Virus record (IMG/VR): IMGVR_UViG_3300013006_000032
Span: 1-63,873 of that record
Source of the DNA: a virus
Taxonomy: Duplodnaviria > Caudoviricetes
Strand: one strand, 5' to 3'
Length of the DNA: 63,873 nt
Below, in pieces: positions 29,799 through 55,181 of this stretch. The position numbers and the translations under genes were made by a program. Every line of letters begins with the position of its first letter. Within the stretch, counting starts at the first letter, position 1. Below the pieces are notes generated by a model that saw nothing but the letters and a program-made list of their open reading frames with translations, ran no database searches and was not told the origin of the DNA.

Positions 29799-30686
29799 AT
29801 GAACCGTACAAGAGAGCTAGTTGAAATGGGTGACTTCTATGAGAAGTCAGTTATTGAAGAAAAGAAGTCTGTTTTCCCGCCAAAAGGGACATTTAAGCTC
29901 GCTACAGATAAAAAGCCCGTAGAAGTCGAGGCGGATAAGAATGCTTTTACAAATAAAAAGTCAGGACCTGAAAATGCTGACGGTTTTAAAAAGGATATTG
30001 TTGATCCTAAAACAACAAAAAAAGAAAATTTTTATGACCCTAAAAAATTCTCACAAAACCTTGAAAAAACAGAGGTACGAACAATAAATACTTTTATGAA
30101 CAAATCTATTTTTGATAAACTATATGAGGATGTAATGTCCGATCAGCAAGAAGACGCTGGTATTAATGATGCCGAAGCCCTTGGTCTTCCTTCCGGCGAT
30201 ACCGAAGAAGGTGCTGGCGGCGAAGAAGTAACATTGACACTACCACGTGATGTTGCTCAAAAGCTTTGTGATATGCTTCACGGAGTTCTCGATGCAGGTG
30301 CAGAAGAGACTTCTGGTGAAGGTGAAGTTAACGATGAAGAAGGCACCGGTGAAGAAGGTGTTTCTGATGAAGCTAACGAAGAAAAAGATGAAGAAGAAAA
30401 AGATGAAGTTGCTAAAGAAGCTACTGAACTTAAGGAAGTTCCTGCTTCAGCCGGACAGAGCCTTCAGAAGAAGGATAATAAGGTCGGCGATGTAACAAAG
30501 AGTTTAGTCTCAAGCGGTGCTGGCGATGCTAAAGTTACCGATAAGGTCGGTAATGACGGTGAAAAAGGTCATGCCTTAGTTGGTGCTGGTGTTAAGGGCG
30601 GTGCTCCCACATCACCAAAGGGCAAGGCTAACGTTGTAGCTAGCAAGACATCAAAAGTTGGTTCTTACTTAGCTGGTTTAAAATAA
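29799..30686 (+). CDS. Acidic low-complexity late protein, probable prohead core/internal protein (295 aa)
   Basis: E/D-rich centre and G/K-rich tail; late box; strong terminator follows. Confidence 0.65.
   Translation: MNRTRELVEMGDFYEKSVIEEKKSVFPPKGTFKLATDKKPVEVEADKNAFTNKKSGPENADGFKKDIVDPKTTKKENFYDPKKFSQNLEKTEVRTINTFMNKSIFDKLYEDVMSDQQEDAGINDAEALGLPSGDTEEGAGGEEVTLTLPRDVAQKLCDMLHGVLDAGAEETSGEGEVNDEEGTGEEGVSDEANEEKDEEEKDEVAKEATELKEVPASAGQSLQKKDNKVGDVTKSLVSSGAGDAKVTDKVGNDGEKGHALVGAGVKGGAPTSPKGKANVVASKTSKVGSYLAGLK
30083..30090 (+). promoter_or_regulatory. Internal late promoter AATAAATA, 5 nt before in-frame ATG 30096
   Basis: acAATAAATActtttATGaacaaatct inside the 29799 CDS. Confidence 0.6.
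30096..30686 (+). CDS. Nested in-frame short isoform (196 aa, MNKSIFDKLYEDVM...)
   Basis: Own late box at canonical spacing and own capsid-targeting-like N-terminus. Confidence 0.55.
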   Translation: MNKSIFDKLYEDVMSDQQEDAGINDAEALGLPSGDTEEGAGGEEVTLTLPRDVAQKLCDMLHGVLDAGAEETSGEGEVNDEEGTGEEGVSDEANEEKDEEEKDEVAKEATELKEVPASAGQSLQKKDNKVGDVTKSLVSSGAGDAKVTDKVGNDGEKGHALVGAGVKGGAPTSPKGKANVVASKTSKVGSYLAGLK

Positions 30687-30713
30687 TTAGTTAAGTCAAA
30701 AATAGTAAAAATT

Positions 30714-30746
30714 AGGGCCTTAAATCAAATTAAGGCCCTTTTTTTT
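30714..30746 (+). terminator. Rho-independent terminator
   Basis: 10-bp stem AGGGCCTTAA / TTAAGGCCCT, 6-nt loop, followed by a T run. Confidence 0.9.
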
Positions 30747-35094: not shown

Positions 35095-35286
35095 TTACTG
35101 CTTATTTTCGGGTTTTGGCAAATCCCTAATAGATACAACACCCTTACGTATAAATGTACCGCTAGCGGGATCAATATATTCGGCTTCAACAACTTCTTTA
35201 CCTTCACGAATATAGGTCTTAAGACGTGGTCTGATCGTTTGACCGCTTATAGGTGAGACAATAGGTTTCGGCGTAATTAAGTCCAT
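35095..35286 (-). CDS. Small late protein (63 aa)
   Basis: ORF with late box CTTAAATA (35292-35299) 5 nt upstream. Confidence 0.65.
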   Translation of the reverse strand: MDLITPKPIVSPISGQTIRPRLKTYIREGKEVVEAEYIDPASGTFIRKGVVSIRDLPKPENKQ

Positions 35287-35600: not shown

Positions 35601-36418
35601 TTATCTAATGATGCATGTGAATCAGGTAGACATAGACCGAGAGATTTGAGCTTATTAGATGATAGTGTACAGTTAGATCTACCGGCAATAATGTTGAGAT
35701 TCTTAACTTCAACAAATTTCCAATTTACGTTTATTTTTCCGTATTTTTTCATAATACTAGTAATCTCTTGTGCATCTAACGGATTAGGGTTTACTACATT
35801 ATATATACCGGGGGCAAAAGCGTCTACAAACTTATATATAAATTCACATAAATCTTCAACAGAAGTTAGGCTATTTTTATAGCTAATAAGATTATCATAT
35901 TTTAATAATTTATAGAGATAATTTTTATTCTCTCTTAATGGAGTAAACGGCATTCTAATACGTAAAATAGCTGAATTATTTTTATTGTATACCGTCTCGA
36001 ATGCATGTTTGCTTTTTGAATAAAAGCTTGAATTTGAGTTAAACAGACCGAAATTAGGTATATCAGTCTCTTCGTATTCTTTTTCATATCCTGAATATAT
36101 ACACCCGCTTGAAACATGCATGCATTTTATATTAAATTGCGCGCAAATTCTATCAATTGTGCTAGCGATTGTGACGTTATACTTCCAGCACATATCCTTA
36201 TTAAGTTCGCAACCGTCTACATTAGGCACTCCGGTATACCCGCAACAATTTATTACATGACTAAAATTATTTTTTTTAAGATACTCAAATAAGTCTTGCT
36301 CATTTGTATAGTTAATAACTTTCTGCGAAATAGATAATACGGATAATTTCTTTTCTGCTAAATAGGTATATAGCTTCGTACCAATAAAGCCGCGGCCGAT
36401 AACTAATATACTAGACAC
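35582..36418 (-). CDS. NDP-4-keto-6-deoxyglucose 3,5-epimerase/4-reductase (RmlD / NRS-ER-like SDR; rhamnose synthesis)
   Basis: Rossmann GRGFIG, GYTGVPNVDGCE, SSGCIY and SFYSKSK (YxxxK). Confidence 0.8.
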   Translation of the reverse strand: MSSILVIGRGFIGTKLYTYLAEKKLSVLSISQKVINYTNEQDLFEYLKKNNFSHVINCCGYTGVPNVDGCELNKDMCWKYNVTIASTIDRICAQFNIKCMHVSSGCIYSGYEKEYEETDIPNFGLFNSNSSFYSKSKHAFETVYNKNNSAILRIRMPFTPLRENKNYLYKLLKYDNLISYKNSLTSVEDLCEFIYKFVDAFAPGIYNVVNPNPLDAQEITSIMKKYGKINVNWKFVEVKNLNIIAGRSNCTLSSNKLKSLGLCLPDSHASLDKCIKEL

Positions 36419-36442
36419 AAATATATTTTATATTAAAAAAAA

Positions 36443-36766
36443 TTACTCTCCAGGATTATTATCCTTTTGAGAATTAAAAAGAAATTTATTAATAAGAGCC
36501 CCCAAGGAGTCAGCTTCTTGCTGATTGTGCGCAGATATTAAATTAACTGGCTCGCCGTCAAAATTATAACCAATTAAAATAAAGCTATTTAAAAATTCTA
36601 ATATTGTACTCGTTAACGCATCGAGATCTCTTTTGTTGGCTACACGATCCTTCATTTGATCGCGAAGAAATGAAATAAGAGCGCGATGGGTAAGTTCTTT
36701 GACTTCTTTATTCTCGTTAGGGTCAAAGCTTTTATTATTATTCTTTGATGATCGTTTGTCTTTCAT
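36443..36766 (-). CDS. Hypothetical protein
   Basis: ORF; late box ATTAAATA at 36773-36780 lies 6 nt before the second ATG (36766). Confidence 0.6.
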   Translation of the reverse strand: MKDKRSSKNNNKSFDPNENKEVKELTHRALISFLRDQMKDRVANKRDLDALTSTILEFLNSFILIGYNFDGEPVNLISAHNQQEADSLGALINKFLFNSQKDNNPGE

Positions 36767-37118
36767 CATAATTATTTAATCTTTTTGTCATATATCTATC
36801 GCGACCATGATAATCAGCGCTGTTTGATACACCATGTCTAATGAGATATTCAATAATTACTTCAATACTATCTGTCTTAATAAACATATTCTTAGGTATA
36901 CGACGGCCACCATCGTGTAGTTCGAATACCACTTCATTGAGTGTATCTTTATTACGATAGCATGTAATAAGTACAGAAGTTTCACTAGGATTAACCATTA
37001 TCGACCACTGTCTAGGATCTGATTTTGCATAAACAGCAAAAATCTTTATAACTATAAACCCATTATCACGGAGCCGTTTAATAAAGTAACTTGGGGTTCT
37101 AAGCTTATTCTTGCTCAT
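36738..37118 (-). CDS. Hypothetical protein
   Basis: ORF coupled to the clamp gene. Confidence 0.65.
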   Translation of the reverse strand: MSKNKLRTPSYFIKRLRDNGFIVIKIFAVYAKSDPRQWSIMVNPSETSVLITCYRNKDTLNEVVFELHDGGRRIPKNMFIKTDSIEVIIEYLIRHGVSNSADYHGRDRYMTKRLNNYDERQTIIKE

Positions 37119-37849
37119 TAGTTTGAAAGCGCCGATACAATAAACTTAAAAGCAGATGTTTCAAGGTTTAGATCAAGCGTAACTACTCCCATTTTAGTTA
37201 TTATTTGTGAGTTTATCTCTTTAAATCTCATAGAAGAAATTATTCTAAATATCTCAAAATTCAACGGTATAGCTAGTGCAAACTGTGTTCCTTGATAATT
37301 ATTGGAAATATTAATACCATATGAGTCTATGTTCGGTCTCATTTTATCTGTTAATTCACCGTAAACAACAGTATCCTTAACAGAAATATATATTTTATTT
37401 GTATCTGTACTAACAGAACTACCTTTTATGAGGTTCATTACTGCAGGGTAAAGTAAGGTAAATTTACCATCAAACTCGAATTGATTTAACTTCTCTACAT
37501 TAAGTTTGGGTGAGGAAATAATATTATCATCATAAAGATGATACTTAAATCTAACGCTATTCGACTTATAGCCAATAAAATTAGATGATATATCTAGATC
37601 GAACGACTCTTCTTCAATACACGATATAACTCTACAAAGCTTTTTAAGATCAGGTACATTTAACGTATTAGTAGATGTATTTGTTTCTTCAGTATGTTCG
37701 ACATATACAATTACTGTATTATCGCTAGTCGATATTAATGAAGTTATTTTTTTATTATCAATTTTAATTACAGCGCTATCTGATACTCTACTTAACGGCG
37801 TTAAAAAATTATTTAAAAACTTTTCTTTACTAGAAACCTTTAAGGTCAT
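37118..37849 (-). CDS. gp45: DNA polymerase sliding clamp (gp45-like)
   Basis: 243 aa with two-domain beta-rich clamp pattern (LNVPDLKKLCRVISCIE); replication-cluster context. Confidence 0.7.
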   Translation of the reverse strand: MTLKVSSKEKFLNNFLTPLSRVSDSAVIKIDNKKITSLISTSDNTVIVYVEHTEETNTSTNTLNVPDLKKLCRVISCIEEESFDLDISSNFIGYKSNSVRFKYHLYDDNIISSPKLNVEKLNQFEFDGKFTLLYPAVMNLIKGSSVSTDTNKIYISVKDTVVYGELTDKMRPNIDSYGINISNNYQGTQFALAIPLNFEIFRIISSMRFKEINSQIITKMGVVTLDLNLETSAFKFIVSALSN

Positions 37850-37855
37850 TATAAT

Positions 37856-37884
37856 AATATAACCTCTTTATACATACAAATCAA
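37856..37884 (-). promoter_or_regulatory. sigma70-type promoter TTGATT-N17-TATATT, 6 nt before ATG 37849
   Basis: Seen in sequence. Confidence 0.55.
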
Positions 37885-38297
37885 TCGTTTTTTATTAAAC
37901 TGATTAATTTATCAAGCTTTCTATCCATTCTATCAATAAGGTCAAATATTTGCTTCGAAAGAGGTGAGCTTTCGAAATTAAATTCTAATTGATTAGGGTC
38001 AGACTGCTGCTGCACAGGAATAGGCGTCAAGGGTTGCTGCATATTAATCCCTGCATTAACAACTGTATGCATTGGCTGTTGTATAGGTACGTGATTAACA
38101 ACTGCAGGAGCTGATAGGGCACCAGGAACCGAATTTAAAACATGCGCTGGATCTAATGTCATACCTCTTAGGGTAGCATTTTGCCCAATAATATTACGAT
38201 TAAGTTCTTTTAAATCGCCTGTAAGGTGCTGCCCCATAAACTGCAGGGCCGCCAGCTTTATCTCTTCAGGCGTTAATTCCTTAAAAGTGTCGTCCAT
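37881..38297 (-). CDS. Hypothetical protein (P/Q-rich, QLEFNF motif, C-terminal coiled coil)
   Basis: ORF between gp32 and gp45. Confidence 0.65.
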   Translation of the reverse strand: MDDTFKELTPEEIKLAALQFMGQHLTGDLKELNRNIIGQNATLRGMTLDPAHVLNSVPGALSAPAVVNHVPIQQPMHTVVNAGINMQQPLTPIPVQQQSDPNQLEFNFESSPLSKQIFDLIDRMDRKLDKLISLIKND

Positions 38298-38300
38298 TAA

Positions 38301-39158
38301 TTAGAGATCCTTTAGCAGTTCGCTAATAGAGTCATCTTCGTCCGTTTCAGCTTTTTTACTCACTTTAGCCGTAACGGCAACTACGGGCGTAGGTGCAGAA
38401 GTCTTTTTCTCGACTACTTCACTTATACTTTCAGCATCTTCCGGGTCTTTTGTACCATGGTAATGCGCATTAAGTGATTCCTTTAATTCGTCATAACTTT
38501 TAACGCTAACATATGACTCGAGATCAAATGCATTGCCGTAGATCTTTTTGAATGCATCTTCATCAAGACCTTCAATTTCCTTAGGAGCGGAAAATTTTGA
38601 AGAAACATATGTAGGATAATCACCTTGTTTCTCTACTTTAATTCTCAAATTACACCCCTTAGGAGAGAGATCAAAAATACGCGGACCGAGATCAGCGGCT
38701 TCTTCACCCTCAATAGCATCCATAATAATTTTGTGAAGCTGACGACCGAAGCGAAGCAGCTTTACTTTTCCGTTATTATCTGCATTTACGGGATCATTAA
38801 CAATATAAACACTAACTAGCCAATTTTCTCTACGTTTAATAGCCAGAGCCTTTTCCTTCTCTTTTTCAGTACCATTGCGTAGTACACGATATCGCTCTTC
38901 AGCAATCGGATCGCGCTGATTCCAAGTGGTAGGGCTAATTAGTGTAATAAGTTGACCGGTTGTTAAGCTATTCCAAGCATAAGAATAATAATGAAAAAAC
39001 GTCTTAGTTGGATCTTTAACGTTAGGTAGTAAGCGGACAATATATGTATTGCCTACTTCACAGCGCAAGTAATCTTTAGCTTTTGAAGACGAAGATTCGT
39101 TATTTTTAGTTAGGGCCCCTTTAATACTTTCAAACATTGAATTGGTAAATGTACTCAT
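38301..39158 (-). CDS. gp32: Single-stranded DNA-binding protein (gp32-like)
   Basis: VRLLP, VNDPVNADNNGKVKLLRFG, FDLSPKGCNLRIK, YPTYVSSKF and acidic tail. Confidence 0.9.
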   Translation of the reverse strand: MSTFTNSMFESIKGALTKNNESSSSKAKDYLRCEVGNTYIVRLLPNVKDPTKTFFHYYSYAWNSLTTGQLITLISPTTWNQRDPIAEERYRVLRNGTEKEKEKALAIKRRENWLVSVYIVNDPVNADNNGKVKLLRFGRQLHKIIMDAIEGEEAADLGPRIFDLSPKGCNLRIKVEKQGDYPTYVSSKFSAPKEIEGLDEDAFKKIYGNAFDLESYVSVKSYDELKESLNAHYHGTKDPEDAESISEVVEKKTSAPTPVVAVTAKVSKKAETDEDDSISELLKDL

Positions 39159-39164
39159 CCCTAT

Positions 39165-39192
39165 ATGATACTAGCTTATTAAAATAAATCAA
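39165..39192 (-). promoter_or_regulatory. sigma70-type promoter TTGATT-N16-TATCAT, 6 nt before ATG 39158
   Basis: Seen in sequence. Confidence 0.65.
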
Positions 39193-39830
39193 GCACGATT
39201 TGAAATTTTTTTAAAGCCAAGCTCGACTAATTTCATAGCTTTACTAGAATTATATAATTTTGTTCTAAACATTGAAATATTATTATAGATCTCTTCACCT
39301 ATAATAAATCTAACGACTTCAGCATCACGAGACTTAATCCGCTTTTCAAAATCAGAATAACCAAATAGAGTATACAGGCAAATATTATGTTCTCTAAGAT
39401 GTAATATAAAAGAATATTCATTATTAGTTTTATGATCTATATATTGCGGTACTAATATATTGTTTTGTTTACAAAAATTATATATAAAAACCAAGGATGT
39501 TTTAATATTATTAAGTTGTTCTGTGCTATCCGGATCTTGCAAAGTTTGCTTCTTATTATAAAGGGTATATGCTTTAGTCGCTTTAAGAGTAAAATAATAG
39601 TCTAACGGAAAATGTTTTTCATCAGGATAAAGAGCATAAGGCGCTTTAAAATACTCTTCCATTTTTATATGTGGAAATTTTCTTAAAAAAGAAGAGACTT
39701 TCTTAATCGCTACAAAAGTTTTTTCGTCTAATTTTTCGAAATCTTTTCTATATTTAAAGGGTAAATTATTACTCCCGCGAGATACCTTTAAATATGTATT
39801 GTATATGCGCTTATCGTGCTCTGTAATCAA
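39189..39830 (-). CDS. Hypothetical protein, possibly helicase loader (gp59-like by size and position)
   Basis: Track 39189..39845; TTG 39830 overlaps the bS21 stop (TTGA coupling); lies between gp41 and gp32. Confidence 0.45.
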   Translation of the reverse strand: MITEHDKRIYNTYLKVSRGSNNLPFKYRKDFEKLDEKTFVAIKKVSSFLRKFPHIKMEEYFKAPYALYPDEKHFPLDYYFTLKATKAYTLYNKKQTLQDPDSTEQLNNIKTSLVFIYNFCKQNNILVPQYIDHKTNNEYSFILHLREHNICLYTLFGYSDFEKRIKSRDAEVVRFIIGEEIYNNISMFRTKLYNSSKAMKLVELGFKKISNRA

Positions 39831-40039
39831 CTGTAAAACTTCCACTTATTTCTCATCACTTGCTTCTTAATCTTACGAAGCGCACTTGGCTTGTAATAAC
39901 ATCTACGTATACGTAATTCCTCTAAAACACCAGATTTAAGAAATTCTCTATTAAACTTATTGTAAGCCTTATCAAAGTATGCTTTATCTGTACATCTCTT
40001 TTTATCTAAAGTAACTGATGCTTTTATTACTCTACTCAT
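39827..40039 (-). CDS. rpsU: Ribosomal protein bS21 homolog
   Basis: 70-aa basic protein with FDKAYNKFNREFLKSGVLEELRIRRCYYKPSALRKIKK, matching the bS21 pattern (A-x-x-x-F-x-R...G-x-L-x-E-x-R-x-R-x-x-Y-x-K-P-S-x-x-R-K). Confidence 0.8.
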   Translation of the reverse strand: MSRVIKASVTLDKKRCTDKAYFDKAYNKFNREFLKSGVLEELRIRRCYYKPSALRKIKKQVMRNKWKFYS

Positions 40040-40332
40040 ACGGTCAACATTTTCTTATTACTGTTTAAAAATTTCATGATGTATTTACTTTTATATAGGC
40101 TAGAGTCAAATTGCAAGAAAAATTTAACAGCGCTAAAATCATTTTTGAGATCGCAATACTCTTTAAATAAATCTCTTAAATTCTTATTCTTTAATAAGTG
40201 TATAAAAACATTAGCTAAATTAAGTTTTTTTGTATTAATAAGTGTTACGAATGAACAAAAAGATAAGAACAAGTGTGTTTGCTCATATTCTGTTAAGTGT
40301 TCTAGTGGATCGTACCCTTTCACAGTCAACAA
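40036..40332 (-). CDS. Hypothetical protein
   Basis: ORF whose stop overlaps the bS21 start (ATGA). Confidence 0.6.
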   Translation of the reverse strand: MLTVKGYDPLEHLTEYEQTHLFLSFCSFVTLINTKKLNLANVFIHLLKNKNLRDLFKEYCDLKNDFSAVKFFLQFDSSLYKSKYIMKFLNSNKKMLTV

Positions 40333-40357
40333 CTAATTATTGACTATTTATTAAAAA

Positions 40358-41686
40358 TCAAATGTCTAGGGCAAGTTTTGATAGAGTACTAATAGAAGAT
40401 GTACTAGCTTCTGTATCGTTTATATGTTCGTCCTCCGTAATAGTTAAGGTTGAATAGTCAATTCTCATAGCGCAATGGCCGAAATTAGGTCCAAATCTAT
40501 TCTTCATAAATCCCATTTTTATCACTCCGAGCTCTTTATCTGTATCTTCTTGCCAAATACTTAAGATAACGTCGCCCGTCATTGCTAAGCCTATACTCTC
40601 TGAGATCGTCTTTAAGCCGGGATCTGTAGTCTCATACCCTTCTCTATTTAATTGTGTAGCTGATATAATTGGACAAGAGAATGTATAAGAAAGAGCGCGT
40701 AACTGCTCGGTGCACATCTTTATACGTTCATAACTACTATCCCCTGTTGTCGAACGTAATAAATTGACATAATCTAATACTATAGCATCTATATGAATGC
40801 CTTTTTGAATAAGTTTTTTGACAAATGCCCTTAAGTGATTTGCTGTAATAGTCGCGGGTGGAAATTCTTTTATAATTAGCTTAGCGTTAGGATTCTCAAC
40901 ACAATACTCATTAATTTGGCTTTTTAACGTTTCAGACTCTATTTTAAGCTGGCTGAGTGGTATCTTAGATACACTGGAACAGAGCCTCTTGGCATAAACT
41001 AATTCAGGCATCTCAAGAGATACCAATAATACGGTTTTACCTTTATTAGCAATATTTACCGCTACATTGCCTAAAAAAATACTCTTACCTATATTAGTTT
41101 CTCCAGCGAACAAGTAAAGAGCGCGGCCCTGCTCAAGAAACCCGCCACCAATCTTGTCATCAAGCCATTTCCATCCAGAGGGAATATAATTTTCATGCGA
41201 ATTTAAATCTGTTATAACTCGATCAATATCGGTAAATAGATCTAAACCTATTTCAGTAGTAAGAGATAAACTACACGCCTTTTCAAACTTTTCAAGAATT
41301 TTAGATGTATCAACTTCACTTTTATTAATGTCATCTACGACTTCCATCATAGTATGGTAGACTGCTTTTTCTTTTAAAAAAGTCTCAGTATTTGTAGCTA
41401 ACTCATCAGGATTAAGATTTTTTTCAATATTATTAAAAAGTTGAATTACATTCTTGAGAGAAGTTTTAAGCTCTTCGGTAATAAGATAAGACTTAATTTC
41501 TGTTACTGTAGGTTTGGTATTACGCTTTTCATAAAAATCACTAATAATACTAAAAATAGCCTTAATGTCTTTATTTTTAAAATAAATTGGTTTGATATAA
41601 TCAATAATTGATGCGAGATATGTTTCATCAGTTAGCGACTTATATGCTATTAATGATTCAAAATAATCTAGATCTAACTTCGACAT
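40358..41686 (-). CDS. gp41: Replicative DnaB-like helicase
   Basis: Walker A GETNIGKS, SLEM, LDYVNLL, SATQLNR and MKNRFG. Confidence 0.95.
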   Translation of the reverse strand: MSKLDLDYFESLIAYKSLTDETYLASIIDYIKPIYFKNKDIKAIFSIISDFYEKRNTKPTVTEIKSYLITEELKTSLKNVIQLFNNIEKNLNPDELATNTETFLKEKAVYHTMMEVVDDINKSEVDTSKILEKFEKACSLSLTTEIGLDLFTDIDRVITDLNSHENYIPSGWKWLDDKIGGGFLEQGRALYLFAGETNIGKSIFLGNVAVNIANKGKTVLLVSLEMPELVYAKRLCSSVSKIPLSQLKIESETLKSQINEYCVENPNAKLIIKEFPPATITANHLRAFVKKLIQKGIHIDAIVLDYVNLLRSTTGDSSYERIKMCTEQLRALSYTFSCPIISATQLNREGYETTDPGLKTISESIGLAMTGDVILSIWQEDTDKELGVIKMGFMKNRFGPNFGHCAMRIDYSTLTITEDEHINDTEASTSSISTLSKLALDI

Positions 41687-41693
41687 TAGTTAT

Positions 41694-41721
41694 AATATAC
41701 AATCAATTTAACGGTAATCAA
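41694..41721 (-). promoter_or_regulatory. sigma70-type promoter TTGATT-N16-TATATT, 7 nt before ATG 41686
   Basis: Seen in sequence. Confidence 0.5.
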
Positions 41722-42398
41722 TGTTGACTATATTCTTTAATAAACTTTTCTTGGCTTTCACGAAAATTTTTATCTTCAAAACTTAATAGCCCAGGCGAAT
41801 TATGGAGCACCCATATCGGAGCAACACCAAGCTTAAGTTTCTTATAATTTGCATCAATGCTGCTTGCTATATCATAATGGTGAAAATTATAGTTTTCATT
41901 AAATTTCCAGCCTACAGACTTTATTTTTCTTGTATCAACACTTAAAAATAATCCGTCTAAAATAGCAACACGGCTTGGCGTGGGGCCAAAGCTTGTAAAC
42001 ATAATTTGATCTTTTGCACAAGGATGAGATACAGCACCACGAAGATTACCGCTCTGAAACCCTCCACACATTAAATGCCATAATGCAGGTTCTTTGATAA
42101 CAGGATTAATACCACCAGCTAGACCAACTATATCAAACTGTGTATGCGCCCGCTCTAATTTCTCGCAAACCCCAAGATCATCGACGTATACATCATCGTG
42201 TATAAAGACGATATGTGTATAATCGGTTTTATGCGTTTCAATTATACTGTTATATAGTATACTTAGCCCTGTTGTGTTGTTTGTATTATATAAAATATCA
42301 ATATTAGAATCTCTTTCTTTTAATCTTTGAAGGGATTTATAAGCAAGCGTCTCTCGTTCTCTAGCACCGCGGGTTGCGAAATAAAAGGCAATTTTCAT
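41718..42398 (-). CDS. GT-A fold glycosyltransferase (GT2-like)
   Basis: GLSILYN, VFIHDDV (DxD-like), IVGLAG, LDGLFL and FHHYDIA motifs. Confidence 0.75.
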   Translation of the reverse strand: MKIAFYFATRGARERETLAYKSLQRLKERDSNIDILYNTNNTTGLSILYNSIIETHKTDYTHIVFIHDDVYVDDLGVCEKLERAHTQFDIVGLAGGINPVIKEPALWHLMCGGFQSGNLRGAVSHPCAKDQIMFTSFGPTPSRVAILDGLFLSVDTRKIKSVGWKFNENYNFHHYDIASSIDANYKKLKLGVAPIWVLHNSPGLLSFEDKNFRESQEKFIKEYSQH

Positions 42399-43078
42399 TT
42401 TGTAAAAAATGGTGAGTTTGTTTTAAACTTACCTACTGAAGTTATACCTTCCTGCGTTAAAAGATATAGTACACCTTCTTCTAGGGCAACAAATCCTTTT
42501 TCTTTTATAGATGAAAAATCGTTAGTTAAAAAATTAGCAAATACAGTACTACCCGAACGACCTATATACGTATTTCTTGATCTCTGATTATAAATCCACA
42601 CACCAAATGTGCCCTTGAGCTGTGATAAAGCGAAACATATAGCTGCAACCTCGTCATTACTCTTTTTATACATGGTATGAATAAGAGGTGCAATAACCGA
42701 GGAATCGACAGTATTAAACGACTTCTTATCGGTTAATTGCGCTTTTATCTCTTTATCGTTAGTCAATACACCATTATGAGCAACAAGCCAGTCTTTATAC
42801 TGAAAGGGATGAGATGTCGTGGGCGAAAATGTTCTCTTAGCAGACGTCGGTGCTTGAGTGTGTCCGAGAAACAAATCAAAATCTGCTATTTTTCTCTTCT
42901 TTTTTCCATATTCAATAATGAGATTATCGGCCAACTTAGTTACCCCTGGGGTCTTAAGAATAGCGTGTATCTTATGACCGATCAATAAGCCGCCATAAGA
43001 AAAAGTACCTCTTTTCTTATTACTATTATAGAGCTTTACGTATTTTGTAAATTCTTTAGAGCCAAATATGCCGCAAAT
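42395..43078 (-). CDS. Class II (Ntn) glutamine amidotransferase with non-canonical ATT start
   Basis: In-frame extension of track ORF 42395..42985 gives ATT-TGC-GGC-ATA-TTT-GGC = (M)CGIFG...RG...GHTQAPT...HPF...AHNGVLTN...VDS. An in-frame TAG lies at 43093-43091, so no upstream ATG is possible. Confidence 0.85.
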   Translation of the reverse strand: MCGIFGSKEFTKYVKLYNSNKKRGTFSYGGLLIGHKIHAILKTPGVTKLADNLIIEYGKKKRKIADFDLFLGHTQAPTSAKRTFSPTTSHPFQYKDWLVAHNGVLTNDKEIKAQLTDKKSFNTVDSSVIAPLIHTMYKKSNDEVAAICFALSQLKGTFGVWIYNQRSRNTYIGRSGSTVFANFLTNDFSSIKEKGFVALEEGVLYLLTQEGITSVGKFKTNSPFFTK

Positions 43079-43085
43079 ATGTTTT

Positions 43086-43092
43086 ACCTCCT
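43086..43092 (-). promoter_or_regulatory. Perfect Shine-Dalgarno AGGAGGT, 7 nt before ATT 43078
   Basis: Seen in sequence. Confidence 0.8.
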
Positions 43093-43097
43093 AAATT

Positions 43098-43125
43098 ATT
43101 ATAATAAGAAGATTAAATAATTCAA
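43098..43125 (-). promoter_or_regulatory. sigma70-type promoter TTGAAT-N16-TATAAT; predicted +1 at the SD itself
   Basis: Seen in sequence; overlaps the divergent late box ATTAAATA (43112-43119, +). Confidence 0.65.
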
Positions 43126-43126
43126 G

Positions 43127-44017
43127 ATGAATAAAGATGTAAATCTCATCTTCGAAGCGTATAAAAAAGCAAAAACCGTTGTAACGGAAGCACCTATATA
43201 TAGTACCGGTGATTTAGAGTATACTGGCGACGTCGATTCAGCTCCGGGTAAAGGCTATGGTATAGGCAAAGTTGCTTCAAAAGAAGGAAAGTCAAAGGCC
43301 GAAGTAGCTAATACCCTTTTAAGAGCAATTCAAACAAAACTCTTTAAGCCTGCGTTGCATACTATTGACGGTAAAGAATATAAACTCTTTTACCCGGGTA
43401 GTAAGATGAAATTTAGAACAGATTTAGAAAATTTAATTAAAAGTGAGCTTAAAATCGGTGGGACAGAGGCAAAGTATACAGCGAGAATAGTTGATAATTT
43501 GCTTAATGTTTTAAGAGTTGATGCGGAGGGTGGTATTGGTGCTGCCCCAGCTCAAGTCAAGCAAGCAGTCATTTCAGGTATCGAGGGTAAAGATATCGGA
43601 CCAGGTGGTGCATCAGTACAAGCAGCTCCTGCTGCAAATTCGTTTATTAAAAACTCGGGTGTTAGATTTATTAAGGAATGGATGCCTATTTTTGTAGAAC
43701 TTCCGGATGAGATAACAATTGCTAAGGGAGATCTATATGAGTCTCCTGAGCTACGTAATGAAGTTGTTGAAGCTATAACTCGTGCATATGATGAAGCAAA
43801 AGCAAAAGACAAAGAATTGGTTCAAGATTTTATCGACTCATTAAAATTTAAAAATAGTTATACACCTGCAGCCGAGAAAAAAGAAGGTGAAGGAACAGGC
43901 GAAGAGCCCATAATAGATGAGTATCCAGAGGGTGATGATGCGTATTCAGCGGCTAAGCAAGAATTTGGATTAAGACAGCGGCCTGTTGACCAAGGCAATT
44001 TTAGCTACAGTGACTAA
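43127..44017 (+). CDS. Hypothetical late protein (probable internal head protein)
   Basis: MNKDVNLIFEAY...VVTEA leader; late box 7 nt upstream. Confidence 0.65.
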   Translation: MNKDVNLIFEAYKKAKTVVTEAPIYSTGDLEYTGDVDSAPGKGYGIGKVASKEGKSKAEVANTLLRAIQTKLFKPALHTIDGKEYKLFYPGSKMKFRTDLENLIKSELKIGGTEAKYTARIVDNLLNVLRVDAEGGIGAAPAQVKQAVISGIEGKDIGPGGASVQAAPAANSFIKNSGVRFIKEWMPIFVELPDEITIAKGDLYESPELRNEVVEAITRAYDEAKAKDKELVQDFIDSLKFKNSYTPAAEKKEGEGTGEEPIIDEYPEGDDAYSAAKQEFGLRQRPVDQGNFSYSD

Positions 44018-44046
44018 TTCTAGAGTTGTTTTAATAACTTTTATAT

Positions 44047-44054
44047 AATAAGTA
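44047..44054 (+). promoter_or_regulatory. late promoter variant AATAAGTA, 5 nt before GTG 44060
   Basis: Seen in sequence. Confidence 0.55.
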
Positions 44055-44059
44055 GTCTA

Positions 44060-45049
44060 GTGAAGATTAAGGTTATTGGGTGTGGTATATCGGGTATTAC
44101 TGCTGCGGTATTGCTAGAAGAAAGAGGTCATGATGTTGAAATTTTTGAATCTCGAAATCATATAGGTGGCAATTGCCATGACACTAATTTAGCAGGTACT
44201 TTAGTACATAGTTACGGACCACATTCATTTCATACAGATGACGATGAAGTGTTTAACTTTTTAAGTCGCTACACGGAATGGTTTCCTTTTGAACTTAGAC
44301 CTAAAGGCAATACAGAGCTTGGATTAATCTCGCTACCATACAGCAAAACAACAATTAAAGAGCTTGGAAGAGAGCTTACACAAGAAGAAATTTTAAAATA
44401 TATCTTCAAGGGCTATTCTGAAAAGCAATGGGGTATGCCGTTAGAAAAAATTTCTAATAGTATTTTAAGTAGAATACCAAAAGTAGCAGATAAAGAGAAT
44501 CCCACATGGTTTGAAGGTCAGAAATATCAATGCGTACCTTTAAGGGGTTACACTAAGATGTTTGAGAATATGCTGCGCGATATAAAGGTGCATCTTAATA
44601 CAACTAATAAAGATTGGAAAGAGTATAATACAGATCTGACAATATACACAGGTAAAATTGATGAATATTTTGACTTTTGTTATGGTCGACTACCATACCG
44701 ATCATTAAAGTTTGAACATACTTTGAGCTATGAAAAGATGAATACATTTATTATTAATCAAAATCGAGCTGACATCCCTTATACGCGTGTTTATGATCAT
44801 AGTTATTATACTAAAGACCATAAGGGTCCGACAATTATAACAAAAGAATATTCAATCGACCACACAGAAAATAATATTCCTTTCTACCCAATTCCGTTTG
44901 GCGAGGGTGTAGAGATTTATAAGAAATATAGTGAACTTGCGGGAAAAGAAGAAAATGTTATATTTTTAGGTCGCCTGGCTACTTATAAATATTTAGATAT
45001 GTGGATGGCGGTTAAACAAGCGATACAAAAAGTTTCATATCTCAACTAA
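44060..45049 (+). CDS. glf: UDP-galactopyranose mutase
   Basis: FAD motif GCGISG, HIGGNC, HSYGPHSFHT, YSEKQWG, LPYRSL, YTRV, FYPI and GRLATYKYLDM. Confidence 0.92.
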   Translation: MKIKVIGCGISGITAAVLLEERGHDVEIFESRNHIGGNCHDTNLAGTLVHSYGPHSFHTDDDEVFNFLSRYTEWFPFELRPKGNTELGLISLPYSKTTIKELGRELTQEEILKYIFKGYSEKQWGMPLEKISNSILSRIPKVADKENPTWFEGQKYQCVPLRGYTKMFENMLRDIKVHLNTTNKDWKEYNTDLTIYTGKIDEYFDFCYGRLPYRSLKFEHTLSYEKMNTFIINQNRADIPYTRVYDHSYYTKDHKGPTIITKEYSIDHTENNIPFYPIPFGEGVEIYKKYSELAGKEENVIFLGRLATYKYLDMWMAVKQAIQKVSYLN

Positions 45050-45786
45050 GATATCTTTTTACAGTTATATTTCTCCCAAGGTATCGTAATTTTATAAGAA
45101 ATCGGGTCTATATACCCAGCATCTATAAAGCCTTTTATCCTCAAAGAGCACGCTGTACATTCACCGCAAGCCTGCTCTTCTCCTTCATAGCAGGTCCAAG
45201 TATTACTAAAATTTACATCATGTTTAATACCGAGTTTTATGATTTCTTCCTTAGATTTATCAATTAAGGGTGCTTGCACAGCGATTCTGTTGCGACGGTT
45301 TAAAGCCGATACTTTATTAATTTGCTCTAAAAATTCTTCGCTACCATCCCAAAACCCTGCAACACTATCAGCTTGTGCAGCTCCATGAAAAACAGTACTA
45401 GCCCCTGCGTTTTCTGCAATTGCGAGTGAAATACTTAGTAGCATTAAATTCCTGTATGGAACATAGTTTACCGTCTGTGGATCGCCCATTACATCTTTAG
45501 CCTTAGCAACAGCTATCTTCTTATTAAGAAGTGAAGAGACTTGACAAATATCCTTAAAAAACGGTAGATCTACCCATATATGCTCAACAGGTGTATCAAT
45601 CGATTCAACCTGTAGCGCAGCACAATTGAGCTCTTTATCTTTGTGCTTCTGCCCGTAATTATAACTAATTGCTATAATCTCATCATACTGACTTGCAGCT
45701 AAATGTAACAGTACAGAACTGTCCATTCCCCCAGAAATAGGGACTACAGCTTTACTCGACTGGTGCTTCTTCGCTTTGCGCTTCAT
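45046..45786 (-). CDS. queC: 7-cyano-7-deazaguanine (preQ0) synthase
   Basis: PP-loop SGGMDS, YGQKH..E, YVPYRN and TWTCY...CGECTAC..R Zn motif. Confidence 0.93.
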   Translation of the reverse strand: MKRKAKKHQSSKAVVPISGGMDSSVLLHLAASQYDEIIAISYNYGQKHKDKELNCAALQVESIDTPVEHIWVDLPFFKDICQVSSLLNKKIAVAKAKDVMGDPQTVNYVPYRNLMLLSISLAIAENAGASTVFHGAAQADSVAGFWDGSEEFLEQINKVSALNRRNRIAVQAPLIDKSKEEIIKLGIKHDVNFSNTWTCYEGEEQACGECTACSLRIKGFIDAGYIDPISYKITIPWEKYNCKKIS

Positions 45787-46912: not shown

Positions 46913-47263
46913 TTACTCGTCAAACAACTTTACTACTGGTTCAGAAGAAGGTGCAGTAGCTTGCGCGGCGAACAATCTATCATATTGATCAATGAGACGG
47001 GGATCATTGTCAATATCAACACCGATGACAATTGTATTAATATTAAACTTCCAAGTTGTTCCCTCATTACGAGCTTTCTCGCCAACAAACTCCCTAAAAT
47101 AAAGAGGAATTGTTTGCACGTTGAGTTGACCCTGTTGCGTCGGCTGTACGTGTACGATTGCGGGGTTCTTAACTGTTAGATGTGTTTTGTCAAGAGACAC
47201 CTGGGTTGCTAAAATTGTTCTTCCGATGTGATCAATAAATGTTACTAAGTTGTTTTTGCTCAT
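46913..47263 (-). CDS. Hypothetical beta-rich protein (Sm/SH3-like pattern)
   Basis: ORF with promoter TTGATT-N16-TAAATT (47270-47297) 6 nt upstream. Confidence 0.65.
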   Translation of the reverse strand: MSKNNLVTFIDHIGRTILATQVSLDKTHLTVKNPAIVHVQPTQQGQLNVQTIPLYFREFVGEKARNEGTTWKFNINTIVIGVDIDNDPRLIDQYDRLFAAQATAPSSEPVVKLFDE

Positions 47264-49926: not shown

Positions 49927-50496
49927 TTAAGCAATATCATTATATAGAGCTATTAGCTTACCAAAATTGTATAGCTCTATCTTCTTGACCCCACAGCTTT
50001 TTATTTTATTCTTATTAGTGTCATTAAAGAAGTAGTTTGTTGTTTTTTCAGATGTCGGTGCCTGTAGATCTTCAATAATATAGAGCCCGCCCTTTTTAAT
50101 TGAAGAAAAAAGATTAAAAAAGCAATTCATATGATGATCGTGTAAATGACTTCCATCATCAATAATAATATCAAATTCAGACTGTATTTTTAAAATATTT
50201 AAAATATCTTCCTTGCAGCCAGCGTCGCCTTTTAGTGTCTTAACTCTTTCAATATTAAAGTGACTACAGTCAACTATATCAAAGCCGAAAATATTAGCTT
50301 TAGAAAAATATTCAGATAATACTTTTAAAGACGCTCCAGGAAATAATGGATCTGCAATTCCTATTTCTAAAATATTAATTTTTTTATTCTTAAAGGGTGC
50401 GAATATTTTTTCGTAAGTAAATGAATAACAGTGTTTTTCGCGAACTTCGTCGCCTTTATCAGTCCCGTGTTTATTGCAAAGATCGTTAAAGGTCAT
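49927..50496 (-). CDS. Class I SAM-dependent methyltransferase (sugar O-methyltransferase-like)
   Basis: GTDK, ILEIGI, GFDI, FDIIIDDGSH and GGLYIIEDL. Confidence 0.85.
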   Translation of the reverse strand: MTFNDLCNKHGTDKGDEVREKHCYSFTYEKIFAPFKNKKINILEIGIADPLFPGASLKVLSEYFSKANIFGFDIVDCSHFNIERVKTLKGDAGCKEDILNILKIQSEFDIIIDDGSHLHDHHMNCFFNLFSSIKKGGLYIIEDLQAPTSEKTTNYFFNDTNKNKIKSCGVKKIELYNFGKLIALYNDIA

Positions 50497-51704
50497 AACC
50501 CATTAATAGAATTTAGGAGCGCTCGTTTTGAATCACCATAAGGATGTGAATACAATTCAACATATTTGTTAATATTATCTTCATTTTCAAGCCATCTACT
50601 TTCTGCAACTTTTCTAAACTTAGCGCAGCTGTTCATATATTTTCCTTTTTTCTCCAAAGTATCCTCAATACAACCGATCATTTCTTCACCCGTTTTAAAT
50701 TTAATAGAGGCGTCTTTATATGTAACAAGATCTTGACATGCAACCGGTAACCCGTAGCTACATGCTTCAATATACTTTAAATCACTTTTAGCTTTGTTAA
50801 AGGTGTTGTCTTGAAGTGGTGCAACCATCATATTAACACGGAGGTTATATATTTTCTCTGGATAGCTATACAGTTGAGACCATGGGTGAAACTCAAAATC
50901 ACCGTTCCTAATATAATTTTGTAGAGGAAGCGGAAAAGCACCTAGAAACACCCATTTATATTTGTCTTTTGTCTTGACAATAGCATCGATTACATGATGA
51001 AAATCGTCTTTCTGGCCTACGCGATTATCGACATCAAAATGTGCCCCTGACCCCGCATAAAGTATTCGAGGCTTATCTTCAAAGGCGTCGTAATTCTCTG
51101 AAATTCTTTTTTCGTTATAAAAATTACCCATCCACCATTTTGGAGGATAATTTGGAATAACCGTAATATTCTGATTCTTTGTTTTACCTAAGTAATAATC
51201 TTTCATGAAATCACATGTTACTGTAATTTCGTCGCATAGCTCCATAATTGCTTGCGCGGTTCTACGAATTGAAGGGTCTGTAAAAGCTGGCTTAAACTTA
51301 TTATACTCAGGAATATCTTCACTAAATACAAGATCGTCGATTTCATATATAATACGGAACCCAACTTTTTGGCTTACCTCCTTAAGAAATTGTACAAATT
51401 TTAATTGACTTTCTGTTGCTTGACGCTGAATTCTAACAGCTTTAACACCTCTATAGTAATTGGGATCAAAGCACATTACAGTGCTGCCATGTACAACTAG
51501 TTTTTGATGCGCATTTAAAAGATGCTCAGGCCAGATCATGCGCCAAAATCCACATCCACTATAGTCGGCGTAGTAATTTAAAGCTCGAGGTAGATCAAGT
51601 TCTGGTGGACGAGGTACATCATTTTGCTTTGGTGCATTACCTACAATAGGTGAGGGAAAAGGTGAAACAAACGGTGAGGGTACGGGAAAGGGGCTAGAAA
51701 ACAT
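50493..51704 (-). CDS. GT-B fold glycosyltransferase (GT4-like)
   Basis: SGCGFWRMIWP, YEIDD, VIPN, APLQDNTFNKAKSDLKYIEA. Confidence 0.8.
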   Translation of the reverse strand: MFSSPFPVPSPFVSPFPSPIVGNAPKQNDVPRPPELDLPRALNYYADYSGCGFWRMIWPEHLLNAHQKLVVHGSTVMCFDPNYYRGVKAVRIQRQATESQLKFVQFLKEVSQKVGFRIIYEIDDLVFSEDIPEYNKFKPAFTDPSIRRTAQAIMELCDEITVTCDFMKDYYLGKTKNQNITVIPNYPPKWWMGNFYNEKRISENYDAFEDKPRILYAGSGAHFDVDNRVGQKDDFHHVIDAIVKTKDKYKWVFLGAFPLPLQNYIRNGDFEFHPWSQLYSYPEKIYNLRVNMMVAPLQDNTFNKAKSDLKYIEACSYGLPVACQDLVTYKDASIKFKTGEEMIGCIEDTLEKKGKYMNSCAKFRKVAESRWLENEDNINKYVELYSHPYGDSKRALLNSINGL

Positions 51705-53524: not shown

Positions 53525-54594
53525 GTATTATTAGCCCTCTTATATAGATCTAAGCAATAGCGAGACACATCGCTCTTCTTCTCTATATCAAGTAATGTTA
53601 CGAATTCTTCAATAGCTTTACTCATATCTACACCAGATAAATCATACGCTTGATCTTCATTTACTGTAATTGAATCATTATAGAGAGTGTAGTCAACAGA
53701 TAAATTAAACGGTTTGTGGGTAGATATTTTTTGAATGAGAAGTTCAATATTATCGCTTGTAATTTTCTTGTCTACAATAAGCTTGATAATATTGTTATTG
53801 ACTGTATCTTTTACTTCTGTTGCACTAAGTGATTTAAATGTCATTAAATCAGTTAGTGTTACTTTCTTATGTTTAGGTGAAAGCTTGTTCTCATAAAACG
53901 TATAATTTAAATTATTAAAATCTAAAATATAATATCCTTTGGTTGAGCCGGTATCACCAAAATCCATTTCGAACGGATTACCAACGTATATAATTGTCTG
54001 TTTATCATATTTACGTTCGTCGCGTAAATGAAAATGACCGGTCATTATTAAATCGGCCTTAGCTAAAAGATCTGAAGTTTTCATACCATGATCACAATGC
54101 TTATGGCTATTCATTTTAAAGCTTTCGATCTCTAGATGTCCAAACAATACATCTGACTTTTTAATAGACCTCACATCTGCTCCCCAAGGTAAAAAGGATA
54201 CCTCTTTACCAAGCACTGTATATGTTACAGCTTCACTGATTACCAAGATATTCTTCCAGCCGTCTAGAATAGAGAGTGAATTAATATCGGATCTATCTTT
54301 ATAAAAAGCGTCATGATTACCGACAATAATCACAATATTAAAGTCAGCCCATAGTTTAAGGATCTGATTTACAACATGAATAGTGTTTACAGCAATTTCA
54401 TCTCTATAATGATAGAGATCACCAAGAATAAATATATCTTTTATTCCTTTAGCGAGAAGTTCTTTTTTTAGCCACGCTGCCCAGCTTAGCGCAGTTTCGT
54501 GCCAAAAGATACTATTTTGATGTACACCAATATGTAAGTCTGCAATGCAGCAGACTTTATCGGTACGTATATTTAATTCCTTCGTCGTACTCAC
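53521..54594 (-). CDS. gp47: Recombination endonuclease nuclease subunit (Mre11/SbcD-like)
   Basis: DLHIG, LGDL, GNHD, GHLE and GHFH. Confidence 0.95.
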   Translation of the reverse strand: MSTTKELNIRTDKVCCIADLHIGVHQNSIFWHETALSWAAWLKKELLAKGIKDIFILGDLYHYRDEIAVNTIHVVNQILKLWADFNIVIIVGNHDAFYKDRSDINSLSILDGWKNILVISEAVTYTVLGKEVSFLPWGADVRSIKKSDVLFGHLEIESFKMNSHKHCDHGMKTSDLLAKADLIMTGHFHLRDERKYDKQTIIYVGNPFEMDFGDTGSTKGYYILDFNNLNYTFYENKLSPKHKKVTLTDLMTFKSLSATEVKDTVNNNIIKLIVDKKITSDNIELLIQKISTHKPFNLSVDYTLYNDSITVNEDQAYDLSGVDMSKAIEEFVTLLDIEKKSDVSRYCLDLYKRANNT

Positions 54595-55181
54595 TCAGAT
54601 GTGTTATAATTATCGTCATTAGGCTCGACATATATATGTGCGCCGCCTGTTTCTTTTGTATCAAGCATAAGCTCGGTAAATACCTTTTCTCGGTATTCAT
54701 TAAGTACAGCGTGATGTTTATTTTCTTTTTTAATTCGATTGATAAAAGCATGAAACGCAATTGTAGTAAAATATGAGAAAGGACTAAATCCTGTATCGAG
54801 TTTAAATTTTTGATTACGAAGAGCGGAGAACATTTTAACTACAGCATCACCTATCATGTCATCCTTGTAAGAGTAGTTAATAAAGTTAGGAGCGTACGAA
54901 AGACCATGGGCAATCTTTGTCAAACTTTCTCCTAGCTTTTGCGTTACGTGACCAGATTTATAATAAGCGCGAATCTCTTCTTCAAATTCTTTACTATTAA
55001 CATAGTGAACTTTATCCTTAGCTTTTACTTTCTTTTTGACTTCAGGTGTCGTGGATGGAACAGCTAACACACCTGTAGCCAATATTTTTGTTAAAGTAGG
55101 ATCGTTAGTAACATCCTCTGAAAAAACCTCTTTATGGTTCTTTGATTTCTTTGATTGAGTGCTGTATTTTTTCTTTTTCAT
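54591..55181 (-). CDS. gp55: Late-transcription sigma factor
   Basis: HYVNSKEF, LSYAPNFINYSYKDDMIGDA, PFSYFTTIAFHAFINRIKKE. Confidence 0.92.
   Translation of the reverse strand: MKKKKYSTQSKKSKNHKEVFSEDVTNDPTLTKILATGVLAVPSTTPEVKKKVKAKDKVHYVNSKEFEEEIRAYYKSGHVTQKLGESLTKIAHGLSYAPNFINYSYKDDMIGDAVVKMFSALRNQKFKLDTGFSPFSYFTTIAFHAFINRIKKENKHHAVLNEYREKVFTELMLDTKETGGAHIYVEPNDDNYNTSE

Follow-up and report, generated by a model that had tools for sequence, protein, structure and literature searches.

The viral contig IMGVR_UViG_3300013006_000032 (Duplodnaviria; Caudoviricetes; 63,873 bp, 34% G+C), which was taken whole and is called the window below, encodes a divergent homologue of ribosomal protein bS21 between a replicative helicase gene and the gp32 gene. 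In our preferred interpretation, to which we give about an even chance of being right, this protein would be a ribosome-binding bS21 variant that tunes initiation on phage messages lacking a Shine-Dalgarno (SD) sequence, and it would act as an optional accessory. The predicted leaderless design of the phage, with promoters placed directly before start codons, derives from promoter placement and exists without bS21.

A divergent bS21 homologue under purifying selection

39827..40039, (-) strand: divergent phage bS21 gene, 70 amino acids, with Pfam PF01165, phrog_21469 and PDB profile matches

The bS21 open reading frame (ORF) scored 37.1 bits (E 2.5e-9) against the Pfam model Ribosomal_S21 (PF01165), which is above the curated cut-off of 27, with residues 22-63 aligned onto profile positions 10-51 of 55, and it matched the PHROG family phrog_21469 'ribosomal protein S21' with an E value of 5.2e-7. 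When a profile made from 18 clade members was compared with the PDB, nearly all matches were bS21 chains (best E 1.8e-7, over bS21 residues 5-54); the bS21 of Flavobacterium johnsoniae ranked 18th of 40 PDB matches, with 29.3 bits versus 34.5 bits for the best one. Clade members on five other contigs obtained 28.2-40.2 bits with PF01165. By these matches, the gene is a genuine but divergent bS21 homologue, as had been noticed in a first-pass annotation made from the DNA letters, which also pointed out the aromatic tail KWKFYS at the end of the protein.

The KPS motif occupies residues 50-52. Across the 18 clade members, residues K19, F22, F29, P51, S52, K59, K65 and W66 are invariant and K50 nearly so, and the basic residues flanking KPS are retained. 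Compared to cellular bS21, the protein possesses about 10 additional N-terminal residues, and a KWK(F/Y)Y-like tail is conserved within the clade. Seven Lys/Arg and no acidic residue are found among the 18 residues after KPS, for which an isoelectric point (pI) of 11.26 was calculated. By residue count, not superposition, position +12 from the KPS Ser (residue 52) is Asn64, and the closest aromatic side chain is that of the invariant Trp66 (+14).

All 20 close relatives of this bS21 (52-99% identical) are metagenomic, only 15 representative clusters among 1.84 billion proteins matched it at E <= 0.001, and a tblastn search of the protein against 50,697 phage records gave no match at E 1e-3. 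Pairwise nonsynonymous divergence (dN) ranged from 0.05 to 0.38 and synonymous divergence (dS) was saturated, with dN/dS (omega) of 0.02-0.22 in pairs with computable dS. None of the computable omega values exceeded 0.22, and the bS21 gene is under purifying selection.

bS21 as a coupled cistron of the helicase operon

The genes and predicted promoters around bS21 are the following.

40358..41686, (-) strand: gp41/DnaB-like replicative helicase, first cistron of the bS21 operon; Pfam DnaB_C 96.8 bits, phrog_19 253.9 bits
40036..40332, (-) strand: orf98, conserved small ORF with uncertain TTG start; no Pfam, PHROG or PDB relative
39189..39845, (-) strand: orf218, conserved ORF directly 3' of bS21; no family or PDB match
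38301..39158, (-) strand: gp32 single-strand DNA-binding protein; Pfam gp32 61 bits, phrog_224 147 bits
41692..41721, (-) strand: predicted sigma70-type promoter of the helicase-orf98-bS21-orf218 operon (TTGATT, 18 nt, TATTAT, 5 nt, ATG; pattern scan)
39165-39192, (-) strand: predicted own promoter of gp32 (TTGATT, 16 nt, TATCAT, 6 nt, ATG; pattern scan)

The stop codon of orf98 and the ATG of bS21 overlap as ATGA, and the stop codon of bS21 overlaps as TTGA with an in-frame TTG (39830) of orf218, for which the GTG at 39845 is an alternative start. The coupling of bS21 through these overlaps inside the helicase-gp32 cluster, noted by the first-pass annotation, is borne out: both overlaps are present, the upstream one of 4 nt is the same in 40 of 46 distinct relatives, and the downstream one amounts to 4 nt in 24 and to 1 nt in 12 of these 46. 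From the sequence, bS21 is placed third among the cistrons of a helicase operon of the sigma70, early or middle type and is made by stop-start coupling; the transcript of this operon is predicted to be leaderless. Orf98 and orf218 were also considered as counterparts of T4 gp33 and gp59, for which there was no support, as profile searches against PDB sequences came back empty; when orf218 was compared with the 'loader of gp41 helicase' of phage HTVC008M using hhalign, the probability was only 0.1.

Predicted promoters placed before start codons

Upstream sequences of the 70 called ORFs of the contig were scored and fell into the following classes.

20/70 genes: TAAATA box ending 4-7 nt before the start
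10/70 genes: -10-like (sigma70-type) box ending 5-8 nt before the start
23/70 genes: overlapping or abutting upstream gene, bS21 included
5/70 genes: SD-like motif (chance rate 4.7%)
12/70 genes: other upstream class
43114..43119, (+) strand: example of a late-type TAAATA box, 7 nt before the ATG of gene 43127-44017
54591..55181, (-) strand: gp55-like late sigma factor; phrog_234 'late sigma transcription factor', 94.7 bits

Among the 119 TAAATA motifs, 11, 5 and 2 were followed by an ORF-opening ATG at 5, 6 and 7 nt, respectively, where about 0.24 would be expected per offset by chance, and the gp55-like factor is the likely reader of these boxes. A bipartite pattern (TTGNNN, 16-18 nt, TANNNT ending 5-9 nt before the start) was encountered at 14 sites versus 0-5 at six control offsets, and in 8 of the 14 sites the -35 element was TTGATT. 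Besides the two promoters of the helicase operon and gp32, examples are located upstream of 49883, 46870, 56981 and 63796. The sigma70-type class precedes the genes for polymerase, UvsX, UvsY, helicase, gp32 and primase, among others.

In phage T4, the late promoter box occupies -10 and precedes the start of the transcript by roughly one helical turn (Geiduschek and Kassavetis 2010, PMC2988020). With a box of this type, the 5' end is predicted to lie on or beside the ATG. Promoter-proximal genes of the contig appear to be leaderless, and the phage group as a whole seems to express almost all such genes in this way, from sigma70-type and gp55-type promoters alike; a third of the genes are, as called here, internal coupled cistrons, bS21 among them. 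The 'window-wide' leaderless architecture of the first-pass annotation holds in that promoter boxes abut the starts of 30 of the 70 genes and SD-like motifs occur at chance level, but it was overstated, as 23 genes are coupled and 12 belong to the other class. No description of a promoter-on-start-codon design in T4-like phages was found in the accessible parts of the literature searched. A study on pelagimyophages reports that late-promoter prediction failed and that bS21 is core to pelagimyophages (Zaragoza-Solas 2020, PMC7029224). Start-codon-fused promoters matter for gene calling and for promoter prediction in such phages.

An amidotransferase gene with an SD sequence and an AUU start

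42395..43078, (-) strand: class-II (N-terminal Cys) glutamine amidotransferase-like gene; Pfam GATase_6 34.9 bits
43086..43092, (-) strand: strong SD sequence AGGAGGT, 7 nt before ATT, with TTGAAT, 17 nt, TATAAT further upstream

The one gene for which an SD sequence and an AUU start had been annotated could be confirmed as this amidotransferase gene, with AGGAGGT at 43092-43086 and the ATT start at 43078-43076, followed by Cys-Gly-Ile as the N-terminus of the amidotransferase. Between an in-frame TAG and the Cys codon no canonical start is present. When orthologues were compared (69 distinct upstream-plus-start sequences from 95 loci, within L001-L155), two start designs were encountered, namely TATAAT, about 6 nt, ATG versus TATAAT, AGGAGGT, about 7 nt, ATT.

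ATT-start orthologues: SD in 24/24; -10 box at 5-9 nt in 0/24
ATG-start orthologues: SD in 1/45; -10 box at 5-9 nt in 28/45

Leaderless initiation requires a 5' AUG, and for this reason the toggle between ATG and ATT starts supports a leaderless reading of the -10-adjacent genes. The covariation of SD and ATT in the orthologues in turn implies that the host reads SD sequences. With regard to bS21 in the operon, the ATT-plus-SD sequences comprised 18 from bS21-positive loci, 5 from bS21-negative loci and 1 unclassified, and the ATG sequences comprised 16, 24 and 5, respectively.

Gain and loss of bS21 among relatives

Members of the bS21 clade were found at 76 viral loci, and a helicase-based scan added 80 more loci. 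At 50 of the 76 loci at least one neighbour gene from the replication cluster of the contig is present too, and at most of those 50 bS21 is located between orf98 and orf218. At the remaining 26 loci, bS21 is the only gene shared with the contig; five of them were inspected and display one common layout, which in L048 reads portal ... bS21, tail-sheath stabiliser, tail fibre. Another T4-like lineage thus has the same bS21 clade (40-52% identical) among its genes for portal, sheath stabiliser and tail fibre, on contigs of up to 230 kb (L036, L038-L045, L047-L058, L063, L066, L068-L070; e.g. L048:9998-10201), and in all four loci read a TAAATA or TAAAT box is found 4-5 nt before this bS21. An extra segment of about 0.9 kb, corresponding to one more gene, was noticed between helicase and orf98 in L027, L029, L031, L046, L059, L064 and others.

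The distance between the starts of orf98 and orf218 is mostly 224-327 nt without bS21 (1,070 nt in L146) versus 454-508 nt with bS21. On a helicase tree obtained by a quick IQ-TREE search (94 rows, 47 with and 47 without bS21), the bS21 state requires three changes, two of which are forced by well-supported branches. Whole-contig Pfam scans detected a single bS21 copy in each of five long bS21-positive contigs. Of five contigs without an operon copy, two (G001 and G002) harbor a canonical bS21 elsewhere and three harbor none.

G002:C1:15868-16029: canonical-type bS21 (L156), 60.8 bits; TAAATA box 6 nt before
G001:C1:167052-167213: canonical-type bS21 (L157), 50.7 bits

In the interpretation that we prefer, the phage bS21 would bind to host ribosomes on the 30S platform, at the site for bS21, which it would fill or where it would replace the host protein. 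As its N-terminal region and its tail differ from cellular bS21, we infer that these parts would tune initiation toward SD-less phage messages generally, and the favoured messages would include 5'-terminal AUGs as well as coupled internal starts. Made early from the helicase operon, bS21 would tune or sustain initiation as an optional accessory. The recurrence of bS21 in this phage group, with canonical copies in G001 and G002 and one in HTVC008M, speaks for such a role. Several observations weigh against it. First, the gene is dispensable: in many relatives lacking bS21, helicase, orf98, orf218 and gp32 occur in the same order with no room for bS21, and L095 lacks bS21 although it is placed inside the bS21-positive clade of the contig on the helicase tree. 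Judged from this placement, bS21 was lost within a bS21-bearing clade, and it is an optional accessory gene. Also, no Pfam S21 match was obtained in G003 (197 kb, 93% complete) or G004 (185 kb, 88% complete), nor in G005 (36% complete), and a hidden Markov model of the clade gave no match in G003 and G004 even at E 10. Second, no cellular relative of the clade turned up when the bS21 alignment was searched against 185,579 species genomes. Third, structural comparisons did not clearly recover the family. The AlphaFold2 model of bS21 (mean confidence, pLDDT, 84.2) consists of helices 19-36, 38-46, 51-63 and 65-68; in a VIA-align comparison with 48,161 chains the best Z score was 4.7, with no clear bS21 signal and with the chlororibosome chain 28jw_u (Z 4.6, root-mean-square deviation 4.0, 61 residues aligned) level with unrelated helical proteins, and a Foldseek search of the model against the PDB gave no match at E <= 0.001 and three at E <= 10, all of them unrelated. 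Finally, a host-like copy would suffice for plain supply, and selectivity is deduced from the divergence only.

One could instead imagine that the protein has been exapted for a non-ribosomal role, namely that of a small, basic protein which binds nucleic acids in concert with the replication proteins and is made in a fixed ratio to orf98 and orf218. Such a role would agree with the position of bS21 between helicase and gp32, where it overlaps both neighbours at stop and start codons throughout the clade, with the low score to the family model and with a predicted fold that did not clearly retrieve bS21. However, orf98 and orf218 are present in relatives without bS21, and the rRNA-contacting KPS core is conserved. 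The presence of the same clade in the structural-gene cluster of another lineage speaks against a replication-specific job as well, and we consider an exaptation very unlikely.

A simpler possibility is that the phage copy only tops up bS21, a late-binding and easily lost protein, after host shut-off, with no selectivity for particular mRNAs. Host-like copies in G001 (50.7 bits), G002 (60.8 bits) and HTVC008M (65.7 bits) as well as the optional nature of the gene are in line with plain supply, and bS21 is the commonest viral ribosomal protein, 900 published bS21 phages having been profiled (Chen 2022, PMC9723584). In contrast, the clade is far from cellular bS21, as illustrated by the few representative clusters that match it, and the 10-residue N-terminal extension and the KWK(F/Y)Y tail are under purifying selection, features that plain supply would not need. 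Mere supply is therefore, in our opinion, unlikely, if less so than an exaptation.

Leaderless-type genes in relatives with and without bS21

The first-pass annotation had proposed a translation-takeover circuit, in which phage bS21 would draw ribosomes away from the SD-led mRNAs of the host toward the leaderless ones of the phage, for instance by parking the anti-SD sequence as the bS21 of Bacteroidia does. We compared the replication regions of loci clustered at 95% identity, leaving out 34 of 155 loci without orf98 or orf218 matches. Promoter-abutted genes amounted to 389 of 1050 (37.0%) in bS21-positive loci versus 214 of 675 (31.7%) in bS21-negative loci (Fisher p = 0.026, for loci that are related and not independent), and in the bS21-negative set, which is more distant, fewer motifs would be detected because of drift. 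In the bS21-less contigs G003 and G004, 92 of 248 (37%) and 105 of 226 genes (46%) are promoter-abutted, compared to 30 of 70 (43%) in the window, and SD-like motifs precede 7% of the genes in all three alike. The spike of ATGs 5 nt after TAAATA is present in G003 (36 of 352 motifs) and in G004 (47 of 496 motifs), and the bipartite-promoter peak comprises 35 sites in G003 and 29 in G004. The annotation had named equally leaderless relatives without bS21 as an outcome that would contradict its proposal, and G003 and G004 are such relatives, with the caveat that the two contigs are 93% and 88% complete; a causal role of bS21 in the leaderless design is not supported. Among deposited phages, HTVC008M has bS21 and displays the TAAATA+5-ATG spike in its first 50 kb (9 of 75), whereas cyanophage S-PM2 has no bS21 and none of its 28 boxes at 4-7 nt of an ATG, a contrast of one phage with one that is confounded by host.

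Some observations would nevertheless suit the circuit. Start-abutting promoters serve 30 of 70 genes with SD at chance level, bS21 comes from an early or middle-type operon ahead of the late genes, phages of this design acquired it in three contexts or more, HTVC008M and S-PM2 differ in the expected direction, promoter-abutted genes are in slight excess in bS21-positive loci, and the invariant aromatic Trp66 is close to the position equivalent to Tyr54. Against it stand, in addition to G003 and G004, which are leaderless-type to the same degree without bS21, the loss of bS21 inside the bS21-positive clade and the fact that the bS21 gene, together with 22 others, is located inside an operon as a coupled and not a leaderless cistron. 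The SD/AUU state of the amidotransferase gene is found with and without bS21. The signature Tyr is replaced by Asn, and the Bacteroidetes type lacks the strongly basic C-terminal part (pI 11.3) seen here. The TTGATT/TATAAT promoters and an SD under selection suggest a host that reads SD sequences and does not belong to the Bacteroidia. Moreover, the sign is opposite in Escherichia coli, where ribosomes without bS21 favour leaderless translation (PMC10491246): in a cryo-electron microscopy study of the leaderless lambda cI mRNA, better translation was tied to ribosomes without uS2 and bS21, and E. coli bS21 is said there to hold the anti-SD where interference would result (PMC10491246). With these findings the takeover circuit is left as an improbable account. 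On the grounds of Asn64 in place of Tyr, the basic C-terminal part, the TTGATT/TATAAT promoters and the selected SD, the anti-SD model of the Bacteroidia does not fit here.

A bolder version would be that the phage-only bS21 lineage, defined by N-terminal extension, Trp66 and KWK(F/Y)Y tail, is a portable modifier that re-parks the anti-SD of SD-reading hosts and thereby favours 5'-terminal AUGs and SD-less phage starts, captured repeatedly and sometimes lost in T4-like phages with start-fused promoters. We regard this as a long shot, and a stacking of Trp66 on rRNA, which could take place, is speculation. The variant that binds ribosomes and tunes initiation on SD-less messages as an optional accessory is the reading that we retain.

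Gene content, host signals and RNA evidence

Further genes of the contig are the following.

PHROG scans, replication and recombination: gp43 polymerase, gp41 helicase, gp32, clamp loader, UvsX, UvsY, gp46/47, primase
PHROG scans, structure and packaging: tail sheath, tail tube, baseplate, large terminase
44060-45049, (+) strand: UDP-galactopyranose mutase (GLF), 181.6 bits

Compared with 50,697 deposited phages, the polymerase, helicase and UvsX of the contig reach identities of only about 27-34%, and the contig, from a lake phage, therefore belongs to a deep, uncultured T4-like lineage. Region 36001-44000 gave no blastn match in the phage collection, and no tRNA genes were found in the contig. 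Several sugar-related genes are present (UDP-galactopyranose mutase, glycosyltransferases, cytidylyltransferase; at 44060-45049(+), 41718-42398(-), 2-1042(-), 50493-51704(-) and 61198-61854(+)). A scan of the species genomes for UDP-galactopyranose mutase gave 70 loci, the best of which were 47-48% identical and derived from Opitutales and from 'Proteobacteria' contigs of metagenome-assembled genomes; the others were 29-39% identical and scattered over many phyla, and no host was called. A search of the same 185,579 species genomes with GTP cyclohydrolase I retrieved nothing. Genes for GTP cyclohydrolase I (63152-63796(-)), a QueC-like protein (45046-45786(-); Pfam QueC, 191 bits) and the amidotransferase (42395-43078(-)) co-occur, which suggests a putative 7-deazaguanine (preQ0-type) DNA-modification pathway of the kind encountered in phages.

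RNA evidence came from assembled contigs of two lake metatranscriptome runs, which cannot show starts and in which DNA carry-over is possible. The two runs contained 7% of the sampled words of the contig. RNA-library contigs matched without differences parts of gp32, genes 29799-30686 and 35095-35286, and ORF 46913-47263; none covered 39339-45341, where bS21 is located, so that they are uninformative on bS21 expression or 5' ends. Gene 29799-30686 has a TAAATA box upstream, and RNA-library contigs from the two lake studies (depth 16-18) were exact over 30121-30715, including the 3' part of this gene; they end 19-29 nt past its stop codon, although contigs cannot prove a transcript end.

Comparison with known systems

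The first-pass annotation had presented its circuit as an undescribed system; however, the replacement of host bS21 by a phage protein in favour of phage transcripts had already been proposed (Mizuno 2019, PMC6375957; Chen 2022, PMC9723584), and the bS21 of HTVC008M was detected in E. coli ribosome fractions (Mizuno 2019, PMC6375957). The words 'leaderless' and 'Shine-Dalgarno' are absent from the main text of that study (PMC6375957), and no description of a link between bS21 and leaderless messages was found in the available parts of the literature searched. HTVC008M, a myophage of Pelagibacter, resembles the contig in being a T4-like aquatic myovirus with a small bS21 and a TAAATA+5-ATG spike. 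Its bS21 differs in that it is host-like (65.7 bits with Pfam) and lacks a TAAATA box or coupling; despite the presence of this protein, tblastn with the bS21 of the contig gave no match of the HTVC008M type (E 1e-3), and of 17 tested proteins only gp32 has a match in the first 50 kb of HTVC008M, with 29% identity. As to the role of phage bS21, nothing beyond its entry into ribosomes has been demonstrated so far, and this for a single protein. The clade studied here offers natural contrasts, namely the same operon with versus without bS21, one divergent bS21 that is preceded by an early-type promoter in some phages and by a late-type one in others, and an orthologous gene that toggles between a leaderless-AUG and an SD-AUU start.

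Freshwater lake phages of Bacteroidetes (Chen 2022, PMC9723584) share with the contig a bS21 that is divergent N-terminally and sometimes located beside DNA-processing genes. In those phages, bS21 is found on the reverse strand in a capsid/protease/terminase cluster, whereas in the contig it belongs to the replication operon between helicase and gp32, and their bS21 is closest to that of Flavobacteriia and has an aromatic residue at Tyr54 (PMC9723584), whereas the contig has Asn at that count. In F. johnsoniae, the anti-SD is sequestered by bS21, bS18 and bS6, with Tyr54 as signature residue, and the C-terminal part of Bacteroidetes bS21 is much less basic than in other phyla (Jha 2020, PMC7797042; for the sequestration see also McNutt 2023 and the 2026 NAR papers). 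Similar to the contig, that organism has one strongly SD-led gene in an otherwise SD-less genome, but there the gene is rpsU, whereas in the contig it is the AUU-start amidotransferase gene, with promoters of the TTGATT/TATAAT type. Also, the bS21 of the contig has neither the Tyr of the F. johnsoniae type, by residue count, nor a weakly basic C-terminal part.

With respect to promoters, the contig resembles the T4 late system (gp55, gp33, gp45; PMC2988020) in its A/T box at -10 and in its gp55 homologue, and it differs in the spacing of 5-7 nt between box and ATG, by which the predicted start falls on the start codon. A study on leaderless expression in Deinococcus-Thermus (PMC12340547) describes a -10 element directly before the start codon as a normal mode of expression, as in the contig, in different hosts and with no T4-type late box, and S21 or bS21 does not occur in the text searched. 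In cyanophage S-PM2, the nearest ORF-opening ATG is located 20-54 nt from the late box. Thermus phage phiYS40, which belongs to another phage family, reportedly (Sevostyanova 2007) achieves leaderless expression from -10 boxes next to its ORFs.

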